Virus record (IMG/VR): IMGVR_UViG_2698536476_000007
DNA length: 26,878 bases
Origin: a virus
Taxonomy: Duplodnaviria > Heunggongvirae > Uroviricota > Caudoviricetes
Strand: one strand, 5' to 3'
The position numbers were made by a program, and so were the translations under genes. Numbering within the stretch: the stretch's first letter is position 1; the number at the start of each line of letters is the position of its first letter. The notes below the pieces were generated by a model. That model was not told where the DNA came from, searched no databases, and worked only from the letters and a program-made list of their open reading frames with translations. Shown here one piece after another: positions 2,494 through 26,878 of this stretch.

Positions 2494-2850
2494 ATGCGTG
2501 ATATGTATGAAGTAATGGATCGTTGGGGAGCTTGGGCTGCTTCAGACAATAGCGGAGTGGACTGGCAGCCGATAGCGGCTGGTTTCAAGGGACTTTTACC
2601 TCATGGCAAAAAGTCACGGATTCAGTGTGATGATGACGAAGGCATCATGATAGACAGTTGTGTGGCTCGGTTGAGAAGGTATAAACCAGAGGAATATGAG
2701 CTCATCATCGCCCACTTTGTTATCGGTATCTCATTACGCACTATTGCGAAGAAGAGAAAATGCTCTGATGGCACAATTAGGAAGGAACTGCAAACTGCAA
2801 TGGGGTTTGTTGACGGCTGTTTAGCAATGTTAGCTTATAGTATGGCATAA
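2494..2850 (+). CDS. Q: Late-gene antitermination protein Q (phage 82/21-type)
   Basis: 'VMDRWGAWAA...WQPIAAGFKGLLP...SRIQCDDDEG' matches the 82-type Q family (LERWGAWAA...IAAGFKGL...CCDDD). Sits immediately upstream of the lysis cassette. GGAG at 2483-2486 precedes ATG 2494. Confidence 0.75.
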   Translation: MRDMYEVMDRWGAWAASDNSGVDWQPIAAGFKGLLPHGKKSRIQCDDDEGIMIDSCVARLRRYKPEEYELIIAHFVIGISLRTIAKKRKCSDGTIRKELQTAMGFVDGCLAMLAYSMA

Positions 2851-4044
2851 AAAATAAAATAGATTTACTGCCGATTTTTCAAAAAAGACTGGGAACTGTT
2901 TATATCCAACGTAAATAAGGCCTCCATAAAACATGGCTGATGCGAGATATTTAACAGTTCTCATCCTTTTTTTAGCTTTATCAATCAAACCTGTAATGCT
3001 ACTCTTAATACTATCTGCATTATCTTTGATTTCTTTATTTTCTTCAAACTTTAAATACTTATCGAAAGCGGACTCCACTCGAGAACGTAAGTTGTCGAAT
3101 GTTTCATTGAATATCTCAATAGAAATGTAATTGACTTTTTTTATCATCCAAAGTCCTGCGATAATCAATATTGCTTCGGTTGTTTCATTAGCCTTCACTA
3201 AGCCACCAGCAGCTATTAATGCACCGGGAATAGTCAATGCTTTTGTCTGATTAGATGATATGAATTCGTTAATTTTACTCGTGAACTCAAGATTTTTCTC
3301 ATCGAGTTCGTTAAGAATTTTATTTACAGAAAACCTCTTTGTGTAAATCTCATATAGTTCATCATATTTTTTCCTGACGAGTTCAGTAGAGTTAAGCAAG
3401 TCAAAGAAATTGAACGTACCATTTGCTTTAAATACTTCGTTTATGGCTGAGCGTATAACGAGCTTGCGCTCGCTTTTGTGTAAATCATTGATTTTTATTG
3501 TGTCGAGAAGCTCCTTTATAATTTCATATTTAAGAGACGAGTTCGATAAGCGATTAATCTCGCTATATTGTAAAAAATGCGTGAGTTCGACTGTATAACT
3601 TTTGTCTTCATTGGTGAAAAATAAGACAGAGCAGTCACTGTTATGATGATCAGCAATTAATGAAAGGATATCTTTCCACATAAAGAAAATATGGATTTTT
3701 TCGATGCTTTCATTCTTAGAAGTAGGGAGTATTAACGGCGTTCCGATGATATAATTTTTCGGAAGAGCGTTTTGGGTGTTTACTCTAGACCAAAAAGACT
3801 CAACATTCTCATAAATTATAGCGTCATCCCAAGATGAAGCTTGGCGATCTAGCCAAATTTCATTATTTTCGATGCAGGTTGTTGCCTTTTTATAACCTAT
3901 AGATTGTAACAGTCTAATTATTTCAGAACTATTTACAATAACAATGCTTTCTTCAAGACTTATGACAGTGTAGTAGCCCTCAACTCTGCTTGAGGCTCCG
4001 TTAATAATCTGCGCTAATCTTGATAAGTCATCAGCAATTGTCAT
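2830..4044 (-). CDS. Hypothetical protein, 404 aa; soluble N-domain plus C-terminal hydrophobic helices; downstream gene of the AT-rich cargo operon (candidate effector)
   Basis: Uninterrupted 1.2 kb ORF in very AT-rich DNA, where long ORFs are unlikely by chance. Start ATG lies 2 nt after the upstream gene's TAA (translational coupling). Hydrophobic stretches LTIPGALIAAGGLV, AILIIAGLWMI and YLASAMFYGGLIYVGY near the C-terminus. No family recognised. Confidence 0.8.
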   Translation of the reverse strand: MTIADDLSRLAQIINGASSRVEGYYTVISLEESIVIVNSSEIIRLLQSIGYKKATTCIENNEIWLDRQASSWDDAIIYENVESFWSRVNTQNALPKNYIIGTPLILPTSKNESIEKIHIFFMWKDILSLIADHHNSDCSVLFFTNEDKSYTVELTHFLQYSEINRLSNSSLKYEIIKELLDTIKINDLHKSERKLVIRSAINEVFKANGTFNFFDLLNSTELVRKKYDELYEIYTKRFSVNKILNELDEKNLEFTSKINEFISSNQTKALTIPGALIAAGGLVKANETTEAILIIAGLWMIKKVNYISIEIFNETFDNLRSRVESAFDKYLKFEENKEIKDNADSIKSSITGLIDKAKKRMRTVKYLASAMFYGGLIYVGYKQFPVFFEKSAVNLFYFLCHTIS

Positions 4045-4046
4045 TA

Positions 4047-5222
4047 TTAGCTGTCTCTATATCTTTTGAGTTCATCATAATTTGCCTGACTCAATTTTAT
4101 CACAATTTCGCATTTGTTGTCAGTGAGAATTACAGGCTTATTTGACTTTTCGTCTCCAATAGCTCCACGCATTATTTTCAACTTAAAATTATTGTCGTTA
4201 TCTGCCACTTCAATTGTAAGCGCGCTTTCAGCTGCTTTAGGAGTTGGTTCAAATTGAGGGTCAATCTGGAAACCATTAAGATTAACAAAATCGACAAACG
4301 TTCCCTTACATTTGTGTGAATCAGTCAGGCATGAGTCAATTATTTTTGAAATATCCTCTATCTTAACGGACTTATTTCCGTGTTTATCTTTTGATTTTTT
4401 TTCCAGTAAGGATTTAACTTCATTGTCAATAGTATCACGCAGTACACGACCGAGTGAGTTTTTACTAGCAAAAATATCTATAGCACTGAATAATTGCTGA
4501 ATGCTTCTTTTATTGTCCGAATCATGTCGGCAACCTAATGAGTCTTTGAAAAAATCGCTTTTAGATTTACCTTGCAAGAAATGTACATATGAGTCACCCT
4601 TGTTTTCTGGATAACTGGCTTCGAATAAAGTTAAATCGAACATCGCAGCCTGCCGTAAGGCATCGGTATTAATTGGATTTAATCTTGTTGGGGTCAACTT
4701 ATCCGAATCAAAGTCATAGGCGCTTTGTTTATCAACCATTACGATTAGAAGTTTCCCCAAATCCTCTGGTTCGGTAGACTTATAGTGGATGAAAACAACG
4801 CTCCCCCCCTGAAGTTGGGCAACTCTCGATTCGTTATTAGCATTATGTTTAAGCTTCTCTATTATAGCTCTAGATAAATCAATGAATTCATTATTTTTAT
4901 TAATGTATTTTTTTAGGATCGTAGGAATGGATGAAGGGTTGTGATCTGAGTCTAGGAAGTTATGAAATTTGTTTTTTCGGCTAAATTTTTTCTCAATTCT
5001 GGTTATGAATTCAGATGTGACTTCATTTTTTAGATCCCAAACTTCACCTAATCGATAATCAAATGCTCTTGAATCATTTTTTTCAAGATTTGCTGTTACA
5101 GCACCAATAGGAAAGTACGATTGTTTGCCCAGCACTACAACATGAGGCGTGGCACCGCATTTATCGCAAGCTACAGTTGGGTCGTCAAGAACATTGCCAC
5201 ATTCTAAACAAGTTATATCCAT
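4047..5222 (-). CDS. Hypothetical protein, 391 aa; N-terminal CxxC-x10-CxxC zinc ribbon plus NdpA/YejK-like region; upstream gene of the cargo operon (candidate sensor/DNA binder)
   Basis: Long ORF in AT-rich DNA. N-terminus CLECGNVLDDPTVACDKCG. Central 'GGSVVFIHY...LLIVMV...NPINTDALRQAAMFDLTLFE...YVHFLQGKSKSDFF' parallels the NdpA motif series GGFVLFCHY...LLVAVL...DLTEWE...YLTFLKGRVGRKVADFF, as recalled from memory. Confidence 0.8.
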   Translation of the reverse strand: MDITCLECGNVLDDPTVACDKCGATPHVVVLGKQSYFPIGAVTANLEKNDSRAFDYRLGEVWDLKNEVTSEFITRIEKKFSRKNKFHNFLDSDHNPSSIPTILKKYINKNNEFIDLSRAIIEKLKHNANNESRVAQLQGGSVVFIHYKSTEPEDLGKLLIVMVDKQSAYDFDSDKLTPTRLNPINTDALRQAAMFDLTLFEASYPENKGDSYVHFLQGKSKSDFFKDSLGCRHDSDNKRSIQQLFSAIDIFASKNSLGRVLRDTIDNEVKSLLEKKSKDKHGNKSVKIEDISKIIDSCLTDSHKCKGTFVDFVNLNGFQIDPQFEPTPKAAESALTIEVADNDNNFKLKIMRGAIGDEKSNKPVILTDNKCEIVIKLSQANYDELKRYRDS

Positions 5223-21302: not shown

Positions 21303-22378
21303 ACGATAACGTCACGCTACGGGTAAATGGCCGGGAGTGGAATGGCTGGACATCGGTGCGCATCGGTGCCGGTATTGAACGGCTGGCGCGGGATTTCAGT
21401 GTGGAGATCACTCGCCAGTGGCCGGGAGATGAGGGTATCACCACGCTTCAGCCGCGCATTAAAAACGGTTCAAAAGTGGAAGTGCTGATTGGTGATGAGC
21501 TGGTGATCACCGGCTGGGTGGAGGCGACGCCCGTTCGGTACGATGCCCGTTCGGTCAGCACCGGTATTGCCGGACGTAGTCTGACGGCTGACCTGATTGA
21601 CTGTGCAGCCGAACCGACACAGTTTAACGGACGCTCGCTGGTGCAGATTGCGCAGGCGCTTGCTGCGCCTTTCGGTATTGAGGTGGTGAACAGCGGTGCG
21701 CCGTCGGGTGTTATTCCTGATGTTCAGCCTGATCACGGTGAAACGGTGATCGAGGTAATCAACAAAATACTCGGTCAGCAGCAGGCGCTGGCTTATGACG
21801 ACCCGCACGGCAGGCTGGTGATTGGCGGTATTGGCTCAACGCGGGCACATACCGCGCTGGTACTCGGGGAAAACATCCTTTCCTGCGATACGGAGAAGAG
21901 TATCCGGGAGCGGTTTTCTGTTTACCAGGTGGCGGGGCAGCGTGCCGGAAACGACGATGATTTCGGTGAGGCCACCACAACTGCGCTGCGGGCCCGCACA
22001 GAGGACGCATTTATTGCCCGTTACCGTCCGATGTATATCAGGCAGACAGGGCAGGCTACGGGGGCAGGCTGTATTGCGCGTGCTGACTTTGAAGCCCGAC
22101 AACGGGCGGCGCGGACGGATGAAACCACCTATGTGGTGCAGGGCTGGCGACAGGGTAACGGTACGCTGTGGCAGCCCAACCAGCGGGTGATTGTCTTCGA
22201 TCCGGTCTGTGGTTTCGACAATACCGAACTGCTTGTCTCGGAAGTCACGTTTACTCAGGACCAGAATGGCACCCTGACGGAAATCCGTGTCGGCCCACCT
22301 GATGCTTATCTGCCTGAACCCGAAGCCCCCGGCGCGCGGAAAAAGAAAAAAGCCAGAGTACAGGAGGACCCGTTCTGA
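21299..22378 (+). CDS. Tail/baseplate hub protein (Mu gpP-like)
   Basis: 359 aa; ATGA overlap with N; position between N and the baseplate V-like gene as in Mu. Confidence 0.7.
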   Translation: MNDNVTLRVNGREWNGWTSVRIGAGIERLARDFSVEITRQWPGDEGITTLQPRIKNGSKVEVLIGDELVITGWVEATPVRYDARSVSTGIAGRSLTADLIDCAAEPTQFNGRSLVQIAQALAAPFGIEVVNSGAPSGVIPDVQPDHGETVIEVINKILGQQQALAYDDPHGRLVIGGIGSTRAHTALVLGENILSCDTEKSIRERFSVYQVAGQRAGNDDDFGEATTTALRARTEDAFIARYRPMYIRQTGQATGAGCIARADFEARQRAARTDETTYVVQGWRQGNGTLWQPNQRVIVFDPVCGFDNTELLVSEVTFTQDQNGTLTEIRVGPPDAYLPEPEAPGARKKKKARVQEDPF

Positions 22379-22926
22379 TGAAGGCGATTGAAGCCATGCA
22401 GCGACAACTCCTCGGCCTGATTGGGCGGGCGGTGGTGAAAAGCATCAGTGCCGCCACGAAATGTCAGACCGTGGATGTGTCCCTGATTGCCGGTGAACCC
22501 AAAGCCGGGGTTGAACATCTTGAACCCTACGGTTTTACCGCAAGGGCAAACAGCGGTGCGGAAGCGGTGGTGTTGTTTCCGGATGGTGACCGTTCTCATG
22601 CGGTGGTTGTTACGGTGTCGGACCGGCGCTACCGCCTGAAAGGGCTGCAGACGGGTGAGGTGGCTGTCTATGACGATCAGGGGCAGTCCGTGACGCTGAC
22701 CCGGGAGGGGATCGTGGTGGACGGTGCAGGTAAAACGATCACGTTTCGCAATTCACCTAAAGCACGTTTTGAAATGGACCTGGAAGTGACAGGACAGGTG
22801 AAAGACCTGTGCGACTCCAGCGGCACCACCATGTCAGCGATGCGGCTTGCCTATAACGGGCATCGTCACAGAGAGAACGGTCAGGGCAGTAACACCGACA
22901 AACCTGATAAATCGATGGAGGCATGA
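22378..22926 (+). CDS. Baseplate assembly protein V-like (spike; Mu gp45-like)
   Basis: 182 aa; beta-rich central region and position; TGATG overlap with the previous gene. Confidence 0.65.
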   Translation: MKAIEAMQRQLLGLIGRAVVKSISAATKCQTVDVSLIAGEPKAGVEHLEPYGFTARANSGAEAVVLFPDGDRSHAVVVTVSDRRYRLKGLQTGEVAVYDDQGQSVTLTREGIVVDGAGKTITFRNSPKARFEMDLEVTGQVKDLCDSSGTTMSAMRLAYNGHRHRENGQGSNTDKPDKSMEA

Positions 22927-23351
22927 TGGAACTGTGGCTGACGGTGAACGGTAAACGCACCTGCGCCAGCGCACCGCTGGATCCGCTGACCCGCGCCGTG
23001 GTGATTTCCCTGTTTACCTGGCGGCGGGCGGAGCCTGATGACAACGCCGACGTCCCGATGGGATGGTGGGGGGATACCTGGCCTGCGGTACAGAATGACC
23101 GTTACGGCTCCCGACTGTGGCTGCTTCAGCGCAGCAAACTGACCAATCAGCTGGTGCTGACGGTAAGGGGGTATATCCGCGAATGCCTGCAATGGATGAT
23201 TGATGACGGCGTGGTGTCCCGTATTGATCTGGATATCCACCGCACCGGGATTAATGAACTGGGTAACAGTATCACTCTCTGGCGTCGTGACGGACCGGTA
23301 ATGATTTCTTTTGATGATCTGTGGAGTGCGATAACGCATGGCGGACAGTGA
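22923..23351 (+). CDS. Baseplate protein (Mu gp46-like, lysozyme-fold/GPW-like)
   Basis: 142 aa; position between the V-like and J-like genes. Confidence 0.6.
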   Translation: MMELWLTVNGKRTCASAPLDPLTRAVVISLFTWRRAEPDDNADVPMGWWGDTWPAVQNDRYGSRLWLLQRSKLTNQLVLTVRGYIRECLQWMIDDGVVSRIDLDIHRTGINELGNSITLWRRDGPVMISFDDLWSAITHGGQ

Positions 23352-24396
23352 ATTTCAGCGCCCGACGCTGGCAGAAAATATCAGTATGCTCCGTAACGAT
23401 TTATTCGCCAGGCTGGACGTCAGCGACACGCTCCGGCGCATGGATGAAGACGTGCGGGCAAAGGTGTATGCGGCGGCGCTGCATACGGTTTACGGGTACA
23501 TCGATTATCTGGCAATGAACATGCTGCCTGACCTGTGCGATGAGTCCTGGCTGGCGCGACATGCTGCGATGAAACGGTGTCCGCGCAAGGGGGCCACGGC
23601 TGCCAGCGGGTATATGCGCTGGGAAGGTGTCAGCGATGGCCTGAAGGTGACCGCCGGGAGTGTTATTCAGCGCGATGACCTGGTTCAGTACACGGCAACT
23701 GCCGATGCAACCAGCTCCGGTGGTGTCCTGCGCGTGCCGATCGCCTGCTCAAGTGCAGGCGCGGTCGGTAACGCTGACGACGGTACGTCATTAATCCTGG
23801 TCACGCCGGTTAATGGTCTGCCGTCTTCCGGCGTGGCAGATACCCTGACAGGTGGATTTGATACTGAAGAGCTGGAAACGTGGCGTGCCCGCGTCATTGA
23901 GCGGTATTACTGGACGCCTCAGGGCGGGGCTGACGGGGACTATGTCGTCTGGGCTAAAGAAGTGCCCGGCATTACCCGCGCATGGACATACCGTCACTGG
24001 ATGGGAACGGGAACTGTCGGTGTGATGATTGCCAGCAGTGACCTGATTAATCCCATTCCGGAAGAATCAACGGAAACGGCAGCAAGACAACATATCGGGC
24101 CACTGGCCCCGGTGGCAGGCTCTGATTTGTATGTATTCAGGCCGGTGGCACATACGGTGGATTTTCATATCCGCGTGACGCCGGACACACCGGAAATACG
24201 GGCTGCCATTACCGCGGAGTTGCGTTCGTTCCTGCTGCGTGATGGTTATCCGCAGGGAGAACTGAAGGTATCGCGTATCAGTGAGGCGATTTCCGGTGCG
24301 AACGGGGAATACAGCCATCAGTTGCTTGCACCGGTGGACAATATCTCCATTGCGAAAAACGAACTGGCGGTACTGGGGACGATTTCATGGACGTGA
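23338..24396 (+). CDS. Baseplate J-like protein (Mu gp47-like)
   Basis: 352 aa; size and position in the Mu-like baseplate gene order. Confidence 0.75.
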
Positions 24397-24971
24397 CAAA
24401 CGATGATTACATCCGCCTGTTATCGGCACTGTTGCCGCCCGGTCCGGCGTGGTCAGCCAGCGATCCGGCGATTGCCGGTGCGGCACCGTCATTAACCCGT
24501 GTTCATCAGCGTGCGGATGCCCTGATGCGGGAGCTGGATCCGCGCACCACCACTGAACTGATAAACCGCTGGGAGCGTCTGTGCGGTCTGCCGGATGAAT
24601 GTATTCCGGCGGGAACGCAGACCCTTCGCCAGCGTCAGCAACGGCTGGATGCGAAGGTTAACCTGGCGGGCGGCATCAACGAGGATTTTTATCTTGCACA
24701 GCTTGCTGCCCTGGGCAGACCAGATGCCACCATCACGCGATACGACAAAAGCACGTTCACCTGCTCATCGGCCTGTACTGACGCGGTGAATGCGCCGGAA
24801 TGGCGGTATTACTGGCAGGTCAACATGCCAACCACCACCAACACCACCTGGATGACATGTGGCGATCCCTGTGATTCCGCACTGCGTATCTGGGGTGACA
24901 CCGTTGTCGAGTGTGTGCTTAACAAACTCTGCCCGTCGCATACCTACGTAATTTTTAAATATCCGGAGTAA
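24387..24971 (+). CDS. Tail protein (Mu gp48 / YmfQ-like, DUF2313)
   Basis: 194 aa; N-terminus '[16 protein letters not shown]' typical of YmfQ-like proteins that precede tail-fibre genes in e14/Mu-like clusters. Confidence 0.65.
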
Positions 24972-24974
24972 TCC

Positions 24975-25760
24975 ATGCATCGTATAGACACGAAAACCGC
25001 GCAGAAGGATAAGTTCGGCGCGGGTAAGAACGGTTTTACCCGTGGTAACCCCCAGACTGGCACGCCTGCCACCGATCTGGATGATGACTACTTTGATATG
25101 TTGCAGGAAGAACTCTGCAGCGTGGTGGAGGCATCCGGTGCCAGCCTGGAGAAGGCGCGGCACGACCAGTTGCTTACCGCGCTTCGTGCGCTGCTGTTAA
25201 GCCGCAAGAATCCGTTTGGCGATATCAAATCGGATGGCACGGTGAAAACGGCTCTCGAAAACCTTGGTTTGGGAGAAGGCTCTGCATTACCTGTTGGTGT
25301 GCCTGTTCCATGGCCTTCAGCCACACCGCCAACAGGCTGGCTGAAATGCAACGGTGCGGCATTTTCTGCTGAAGAATACCCGGAACTGGCAAAGGCTTAC
25401 CCGACCAATAAATTGCCTGATTTACGTGGTGAGTTTATTCGTGGCTGGGATGATGAACGTGGTGTGGATAGTGGGCGAACTCTGCTTTCAGCGCAAGGAG
25501 ATGCTATTCGAAACATTACTGGCGGTTTTGGTCAGTTGCGCGTAAACAGCGAAATTAATGCAATTGTCGATGTTCAAAGTGTGAGTGGGGCTTTTTACGG
25601 AGGTACCTCAGTCCGGAATAACATCAATGTATCTATGACATACGCTAATGACCGAAAAATCCGACAAGATGTTCACTTCTCGGCGGCAAATGTTGTTCCA
25701 ACAGCAAATGAAAATCGTCCACGTAACATCGCCTTTAATTATATTGTGAGGGCCGCATGA
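24975..25760 (+). CDS. Tail fibre protein (constant N-terminal part plus variable C-terminal part with tail-collar-like motif)
   Basis: 261 aa; C-terminal '[22 protein letters not shown]...[19 protein letters not shown]' is the phage tail-collar motif; followed by a Tfa gene with ATGA overlap; contains a hix-like site at 25252-25277. Confidence 0.75.
25252..25277. other. Candidate site-specific inversion crossover site (hix/gix/cix-like 26-bp dyad: CTCTCGAAAACC-TT-GGTTTGGGAGAA)
   Basis: Matches the Hin/Gin/Cin/Pin site architecture (12-bp half-sites with AAACC/GGTTT flanking a 2-bp core) and lies inside the tail-fibre gene at the expected constant/variable junction. Confidence 0.5.
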
Positions 25761-26362
25761 TGAATAAAGCTGTATTGAATAGCGAACTCATTGCCATAAA
25801 AGCGGGAGACATTATCATTTATAATTATGATGGTGAAACGCGGGAATATATTTCTACATCAACTGAATATCTCGCTGTCGGCGTCGGTATCCCGGCATGT
25901 TCCTGTTTGGATGCACCAGGTACACATAAAGCTGGTTATGCAATCTGTCGCTCTGTAGATTTAAATTCATGGGAATATGTGCCAGACCATCGCGGTGAAG
26001 TTGTCTATAGTACCGAAACGGGAGATACCAAAGAAATCACAGTTCCGGGTGATTACCCGGAAAATACAACCACTATAGCCCCATTAACGCCATACGATAA
26101 ATGGGATGGTGAGAAATGGGTGACCGATACTGAGGCACAGCATAGCGCCGCAGTAGACGCGGCAGAAGCACAGCGTCAGTCACTGATTGATACTGCAATG
26201 GCTTCCATTAGTCTGATTCAACTGAAATTGCAGGCCGGGCGGAAGCTGATGCAGACAGAAAACACCCGACTTAACGCTGTGCTGGATTACATTGACGCGG
26301 TGACGGCAACAGATACCAGCACCGCGCCGGACGTCATCTGGCCTGAACTGCCGGAGGCGTAG
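25757..26362 (+). CDS. Tail fibre assembly protein (Tfa)
   Basis: 201 aa; conserved Tfa C-terminus '...[24 protein letters not shown]'; ATGA overlap with the tail-fibre gene. Confidence 0.8.
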
Positions 26363-26753
26363 GCCATTCAATATCTGGCGCACCGGAAGTATCGACCAGT
26401 TCCAGTGCGTCCAGATAATCCAGCCACAAATTATATTGCGCCAGTTCCTCACCTTTCAGGCGACCAATCGCCGCTTTACCTGGCCATTGTCTGCTGTTCA
26501 TGTGCTCGTTGGCTTCATTAATAAGTTTTCTTTTTTTCAAATCCGCCAATGCAATAAGGTTTTCTTTTGATAAAGGTGGTTGCTCTGTCAAAACCGGATA
26601 TCCCTCCTGATTGCTGACTATTTTCATGCCATTATCCTGACCATCCAGTAGTAACAGCCATTCATCCGTGGTTATCTCAACAGCATCTGAAGGTGCTTTA
26701 TTTAAATCGGTAAAAAAACCATTTTCTTTTTGTGAATAGAAGTATCTATCCAT
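26334..26753 (-). CDS. Tail fibre assembly protein, alternative copy (Tfa') on the opposite strand
   Basis: 139 aa; shares the conserved C-terminal Tfa motif '[26 protein letters not shown]' with the + strand Tfa; convergent with 3' ends overlapping, as in invertible tail-fibre segments (Mu G, P1 C, e14 P). Confidence 0.8.
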   Translation of the reverse strand: MDRYFYSQKENGFFTDLNKAPSDAVEITTDEWLLLLDGQDNGMKIVSNQEGYPVLTEQPPLSKENLIALADLKKRKLINEANEHMNSRQWPGKAAIGRLKGEELAQYNLWLDYLDALELVDTSGAPDIEWPTPPAVQAR

Positions 26754-26878
26754 TTATTAATCTCCAAAAGCAATGAACCGCCCCGGTTTTCCTGGAGAGT
26801 GTTTTATCTGTGAACTCAGGCTGCCAGATCATCGTTTCTGATGGAAGCATAATAAGCTTTTTCTGCTTCTGCCGGAGG
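26747..26878 (-). CDS. 3' end of an alternative tail-fibre variable segment (Sv'), truncated by the window edge
   Basis: The - strand frame is open from the window edge to TAG at 26747-26749, ending 8 nt into the Tfa' start; orientation and position match the alternative fibre exon of an invertible segment. Translation not independently recognised. Confidence 0.35.

Follow-up and report, generated by a model that had tools for sequence, protein, structure and literature searches.

The G segment of phage Mu (Gin), the C segment of phage P1 (Cin) and the Hin segment of Salmonella are serine-invertase systems, and sites of the Gin/Cin/Hin type are 26 bp long and share an AAACC-NN-GGTTT core. The locus analysed here resembles the Mu G and P1 C segments in its design, a serine-invertase switch between two C-termini of a tail fibre, each with a chaperone of the Tfa family. 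It differs from them in that its fibres are short (261 or 217 aa) and that the invertase and the second site have been lost.

A further described system is the P segment of the cryptic prophage e14 in Escherichia coli K-12, in which ymfQ, stfP and tfaP lie in this order on one strand and tfaE, the pseudogene stfE and pinE lie beyond them. Its repeat, TTGGTTTGGGAGAAGG, was reported by Kirigo et al. (2025, PMC12529663), and inversion of the P segment is brought about by PinE, PinQ and PinR in trans (PMC12529663); the same publication refers, citing earlier work, to cross-complementation by PinE. It further reports that the ‘StfE2’ ORF blocks adsorption of phage T2 in K-12 and that ‘StfP2’ offers a degree of protection from T2 and Bas69 (Kirigo et al. 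2025, PMC12529663). For the Tfa chaperones, PMC9608196 describes, with reference to the structure of the phage Mu Tfa, a modular build in which a variable N-terminal domain binds the fibre tip and a conserved C-terminal helical domain drives trimerisation.

The window, i.e. the whole stretch of viral DNA that was analysed, comprises 26,878 nucleotides (IMG/VR record IMGVR_UViG_2698536476_000007). Very probably its right end represents the right half of an e14-type Pin-invertible segment that was disabled by an IS629-associated deletion, which would have locked the fibre. The biology is ordinary and already known, and beyond correct annotation the importance of the locus is small; it provides a clear case of IS629 eroding prophage functions in enterohaemorrhagic E. 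coli.

The fibre gene and its two chaperone genes

The tail-fibre gene is located on the + strand (24975..25760; 261 aa; ORF listing of 22000-26878) and is named ‘phage tail protein’ in RefSeq. Its constant N-terminal part (aa 1 to ~98) meets, at the crossover site, a variable C-terminal part of the StfE type, which carries a Collar domain (PF07484, aa 108-155, E = 7e-16 in Pfam); this StfE-tip form corresponds to the ‘StfP2’ of Kirigo et al. (2025). The fibre gene is followed on the same strand by Tfa, a TfaE-type tail-fibre assembly chaperone of 201 aa (25757..26362; ORF listing, PF02413), for which RefSeq uses the name tfaE and the second ATG (25760) as start. The StfE-type fibre together with TfaE is predicted to be the orientation expressed here, and Tfa is the predicted cognate chaperone of the StfE-type tip, a specificity suggested by its family and by the literature.

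A second chaperone gene, the TfaP-type Tfa' of 139 aa, is located on the - strand (26334..26753; ORF listing, PF02413) and converges on Tfa, the 3' ends of the two genes overlapping by 29 bp (26334..26362, from the ORF coordinates; sequence TCATCTGGCCTGAACTGCCGGAGGCGTAG). Both proteins match the Caudo_TAP model (PF02413) far above its gathering cut-off of 22.1 bits (Tfa and Tfa': E = 3e-30 and 3e-25, 105.4 and 89.1 bits, respectively), and both show the variable N-terminal part and the conserved C-terminal module of this family. In pairwise BLASTP the alignment was confined to 65 C-terminal residues (35% identity, E = 9e-9), a stretch containing LDYIDA or LDYLDA followed by DTS.APD..WP, and the N-terminal parts stayed unaligned. 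This pattern of unlike N-termini and like C-termini fits the modular architecture given in PMC9608196. PDB sequence searches with Tfa and Tfa' returned no match at E ≤ 0.01.

The preliminary description of this DNA had reported two convergent paralogous Tfa genes with overlapping 3' ends, a common C-terminal motif and different N-terminal parts; judged from the sequences this half of it is correct and well above chance, and the pair is genuine and ordinary, RefSeq already having it annotated. The alignment of the two C-termini at the DNA level, which it had proposed, gave 55% identity over the 22 codons of the common motif and a best local match of 22 nt, and no recombinogenic inverted repeat was found between the C-termini in this DNA alignment. 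Because the DNA similarity is negligible, the paralogy is old and visible at the protein level only.

A comparison with stfP, tfaP, tfaE and stfE of e14 had likewise been proposed. The window and the e14 P segment agree in the gene order downstream of ymfQ, in the constant/variable design of the fibre and in the crossover core TTGGTTTGGGAGAAGG, and tfaP and tfaE converge with an equal 29-bp overlap (e14 locus L005, 5518-5546). Tfa is 90% identical to TfaE over 200 aa, and Tfa' is 53% identical to TfaP, its C-terminal half being far better conserved than its N-terminal half, while residues 96-261 of the window fibre are 60% identical to the product of the stfE pseudogene. The orientation in K-12 is, however, the opposite one, since the window has the StfE-type tip and TfaE in the expressed position. 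Furthermore, e14 is a remnant, whereas the prophage here has a full morphogenesis module, and in the latter IS629 has taken the place of the silent exon, of the right site and of pinE.

The right edge of the window and the deletion in PV16-126

Upstream of Tfa' the - strand had been noted to stay open to the window edge, and this stretch had been read as an alternative fibre exon truncated at the edge. One - strand frame does lack stops between 26877 and 26752 (42 codons), but it is a chance frame and no gene: it is neither the frame of the fibre exon nor that of the transposase, and the chance that a random frame stays open over 42 codons is ~13%, estimated as (61/64)^42. The fibre-exon frame (stop TAA, 26759-26757) is interrupted within the IS by a stop, the 16th codon counted from the edge, and the third - strand frame encodes the C-terminus of the IS629 OrfB transposase (...PPAEAEKAYYASIRNDDLAA, stop at 26816), whose last 20 codons and stop are contained in the window (26816-26878).

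As seen from the frame and from the alignment with strain 2196, the gp53-like fibre exon is reduced to its last five codons (IAFGD) and the TAA stop (26757..26774, - strand). The alignment with the strain 2196 locus (L002) stops at 26774, 18 nt upstream of the exon stop, and it is at this position that the terminal inverted repeat TGAACCGCCCCGG starts, the junction between the remnant side and the element reading ...CCAAAAGCAATGAACCGCCCCGG.... From there to its edge the window consists of 105 terminal bp of IS629 (IS3 family; 26774..26878, - strand), and the claim of a cut-off exon does not survive. In the flanking sequence, which was obtained as the preliminary description had recommended, the - strand upstream of Tfa' is the IS629 transposase gene, a result that contradicts the earlier reading on its own terms. 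For genome scans the lesson is that, where a known module lies near the edge of a window, an adjacent frame that stays open up to that edge may belong to the terminus of an insertion sequence.

The GGAG ribosome-binding site of Tfa' is intact and located 8 nt upstream of the ATG, inside the 18-nt exon remnant. Tfa' starts 21 nt downstream of the IS629 end (26754-26775), on the same strand as the transposase, and read-through transcription from IS629 could in principle lead to its expression. A weak hairpin followed by a T-run is present in the IS629 terminal repeat (26788-26776), and a search of 24800-26878 for terminators and promoters yielded nothing relevant above the shuffle expectation.

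The full element in PV16-126 (locus L001, 9875-11184) is 1310 bp long with TGAACCGCCCCGG ends, its imperfect terminal inverted repeats matching at 22/25 positions. OrfA contains an HTH_Tnp_1 domain and OrfB an rve domain (DDE transposase), and RefSeq annotates an IS3-family transposase with programmed frameshift adjoining Tfa' in PV16-126. Along its full length the element has 99.6% identity with a copy that carries the name IS629 in JQ347801.1 (phage JLK-2012), and it shares with IS629 the length of 1310 bp, the terminal repeats, the orfA/orfB frameshift and the rve transposase. A 3-bp target-site duplication is absent from the copy beside Tfa', which has the flanks CAA and CTG (the element standing between GCAA and CTGA); this is expected because the copy sits at a deletion breakpoint. 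A second IS629-like copy located 2.2 kb further is 5.3% divergent (69/1310 positions), inverted and bordered by a clean CTT/CTT 3-bp duplication. IS629 activity has been reported in strain PV16-126, e.g. degrading the LEE integrase (PMC12831630).

Positions 24900-26878 were compared by megablast with 5,426 complete E. coli genomes. A single 100% full-length match was obtained, NZ_AP038987.1 from the O103:H2 strain PV16-126, and all other good matches stop at query position 1875, i.e. at window position 26774. The Tfa'/IS629 junction hence occurs in 1/5,426 complete genomes and therefore reflects a recent, strain- or sublineage-specific event; it is seen in one assembly, probably the source of the window itself, which was closed with ONT and Illumina reads (PMC12831630).

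The annotated flank in PV16-126 (L001) consists of Tfa', an IS3 transposase, a truncated TrlF and a second IS3. Strain 2196, which upstream of the breakpoint is 98.2% identical to the prophage region here, displays the intact order of fibre, TfaE, Tfa', gp53-like exon, pinE, two small ORFs and full-length TrlF (L002). Relative to strain 2196, 2,846 bp (L002 7875-10720) are missing from PV16-126, the 1310-bp IS629 stands in their place, and both flanks are collinear. The deleted stretch comprises the gp53-like exon except its last 5 codons, the right crossover site, pinE, the two small ORFs and the last 441 nt of TrlF. In strain 2196 the silent alternative exon is free-standing on the - strand (L002 7858-8256, 132 aa; RefSeq ‘gp53-like domain-containing protein’) and contains a Gp53-like_C domain, and PinE contains Resolvase and HTH_7 domains (Pfam). 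An IS-adjacent deletion and a recombination between two directly oriented IS copies both fit the sequences at the breakpoint, and either may have been the mechanism. Small IS629 deletions in enterohaemorrhagic E. coli likewise have a full-length 1310-bp IS629 at the breakpoint and no target duplication, and compared with them nothing in the case here is unusual.

The exon of strain 2196 (L002 7858-8256) is the counterpart of the ‘StfE2’ ORF and was deleted here by the IS629 event. TrlF is an ATPase of the TrlF family, and its gene belongs to the Ppl type of anti-phage defence (PADLOC Ppl, E = 5e-157, full length); it is intact with 917 aa in strain 2196 (L002 10280-13033) and cut to 739/917 aa in PV16-126 (L001 11182-13401, 4.3 kb right of the window), where the truncated gene lies between two inverted IS629-like copies. 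An inversion of the TrlF segment via these two inverted copies was considered and rejected, the orientation of TrlF being equal to that in the intact relative. One event would thus have abolished a host-range switch and truncated a Ppl-type anti-phage gene.

Crossover sites, invertase and the two orientations

The left crossover site of the Pin/Gin/Hin type, 26 bp long (CTCTCGAAAACCTTGGTTTGGGAGAA), is located within the fibre gene at 25252..25277, where it encodes ..ENLGLGE... It is the single match of a crossover-site search in the window allowing ≤3 mismatches, with 0 matches expected by chance. In strain 2196 a 20-nt, 95% inverted repeat has arms that are 1.8 kb apart, one in the fibre gene and one at the silent exon's 5' end; the two sites are CTCGAAAACCTTGGTTTGGGAGAAGG and its partner CATAAACGTTGGTTTGGGAGAAGC, and these repeats as well as the left site of the window contain the e14 P-segment repeat TTGGTTTGGGAGAAGG.

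Two inverted crossover sites are present in the intact relatives strain 2196 (L002) and ACN002 (L004), whereas only the left one of the two ~26-bp sites is found in the window, the right one falling within the 2,846-bp deletion. A serine invertase gene (Resolvase and HTH_7 domains) is absent from the PV16-126 locus; pinE is present in strain 2196, ACN002 and K-12. Two alternative in-frame C-terminal exons are not found in the window either, the StfE-type exon being intact and the other one reduced to 5 codons, and the two convergent Tfa genes inside the segment are both retained. The locus is therefore a decayed copy of a textbook system, missing three of its defining features, namely the second site, the invertase and the second exon. 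The mirror half of an invertible segment, which the preliminary description had placed at the right edge, is not there in this genome, which has lost pinE and the right crossover site.

In-silico inversion of the 1,853-bp segment of strain 2196 produced an in-frame 217-aa fibre ending in ...AYWIAFGD and a stop, directly before the start of Tfa' (MDRYFYSQ), and both fibre fusions are in frame in the relatives. The predicted inverted junction is found with 100% identity in strain ACN002, in which the whole segment is inverted. The Tfa, Tfa' and PinE proteins are identical between 2196 and ACN002 despite the opposite orientations (Tfa' being WP_000376429.1 in both strains). Among related genomes, the orientation junction of the window type occurs in 513 genomes and the inverted type in 16. 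The suggestion that each orientation pairs a fibre tip with its own chaperone thus agrees with the intact relatives (2196 versus ACN002) and does not extend to the genome here, where the second orientation is predicted to be impossible.

In the intact element, the serine invertase PinE would recombine the two inverted 26-bp sites. The first site lies within the fibre gene; the second is found where the silent fibre exon, which has the opposite orientation, has its 5' end. The resulting inversion of ~1.85 kb would exchange the tip and the chaperone that follow the late promoter and the constant N-terminus of the fibre, so that the tips would alternate between a Collar/StfE-type and a gp53-like/StfP-type and the chaperones between a TfaE-type and a TfaP-type. 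Both chaperones would possess a common C-terminal oligomerisation module and different N-terminal fibre-binding domains. We infer the inversion mechanism and the chaperone specificity from the protein family and the literature. The IS629-associated deletion of 2,846 bp would then have left a single IS629 and an irreversibly locked switch, with the StfE-type tip and TfaE expressed and Tfa' orphaned.

The switch is considered locked because the partner site is lost; the loss of pinE alone would be insufficient, as Pin-family invertases can act in trans. With the left crossover site alone the fibre is therefore expected to be frozen in the StfE-tip/TfaE form, and Tfa' would be an orphan because its cognate fibre tip was deleted. 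The anatomy of the locus accordingly predicts that inversion is impossible here.

Alternative readings and the prophage context

The junction could be an artefact of assembly in which reads of different IS629 copies were misjoined, the real locus being intact or otherwise arranged. Its uniqueness among 5,426 genomes and the 13 places in the PV16-126 record that match the query (mostly presumed IS copies) would be in line with this, IS copies being classic sites of misassembly. We nevertheless regard a misjoin as very unlikely, although the least improbable of the alternatives, because the genome was closed with long ONT and Illumina reads (PMC12831630), a 1.3-kb IS is easily spanned by reads >2 kb, and both IS629 flanks are collinear with the intact relative, as a real deletion would give. 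The exon upstream of Tfa' might also be intact and cut by the window edge only, which would make the segment complete in the genome. The one - strand frame that is open to the edge and the presence of such an exon at that position in the intact relatives agree with this; yet the exon homology ends at 26774 with IS629 sequence beyond, the exon frame has a stop in the IS, and the next genes in the flank are the IS629 transposase and the truncated TrlF, with no exon and no pinE, which leaves this reading extremely improbable. Lowest of all we rate the probability of a simple IS629 insertion into the exon, with the remainder of the exon, the right site and pinE lying beyond the IS and inversion still possible. 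The usual IS629 insertion gives a 3-bp duplication, as in the neighbouring copy, but none borders the copy in question, and past it the sequence resumes inside TrlF, 2,846 bp further in the intact relative.

The favoured explanation remains an e14-type segment that was disabled by an IS629-associated deletion. That this IS629 event was selected rather than neutral, a locked fibre and a free Tfa' expressed by read-through and acquiring a new role being the advantage, is also very unlikely, less so than a complete exon at the edge and more so than a misjoin; if true, Tfa' might have taken on a different function, for example interfering with phages that enter the cell.

The window probably derives from a prophage with a contractile tail, integrated at or beside the tRNA-Thr gene (thrW) of E. 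coli O103:H2. In the O103:H2 reference strain 12009 (NC_013353.1, 294202-294742) ~130 bp that contain no prophage separate tRNA-Thr from a LysR pseudogene, after which comes paoD, and in PV16-126 the prophage and its flanking IS copies adjoin the same LysR pseudogene as in 12009. Because the 12009 locus is empty beside this same pseudogene, integration at or beside thrW is probable and the prophage is evidently not present in all O103:H2 lineages. Strain 12009 was also considered as the undeleted ancestor and rejected, its thrW-LysR pseudogene locus being empty.

Matches to sequenced phages at 88-93% identity were found with Salmonella MET_P1_103_31, Escherichia 500465-1 and many Klebsiella phages. 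These matches start exactly at the crossover site (25253-25261) and stop in the middle of Tfa' (26513-26522), and a cassette made up of the tip, of TfaE and of the C-terminal, conserved half of Tfa' thus moves between phages that are otherwise unrelated. In Tfa' it is the N-terminal half that varies along with its own tip.

Two - strand cargo genes (2830-4044 and 4047-5222) lie between the Q antiterminator and the holin, in a moron-like position. One of the cargo proteins (404 aa) has no Pfam or PADLOC match; the other (391 aa) is a homologue of the nucleoid-associated protein NA37 (PF04245, E = 1e-23).
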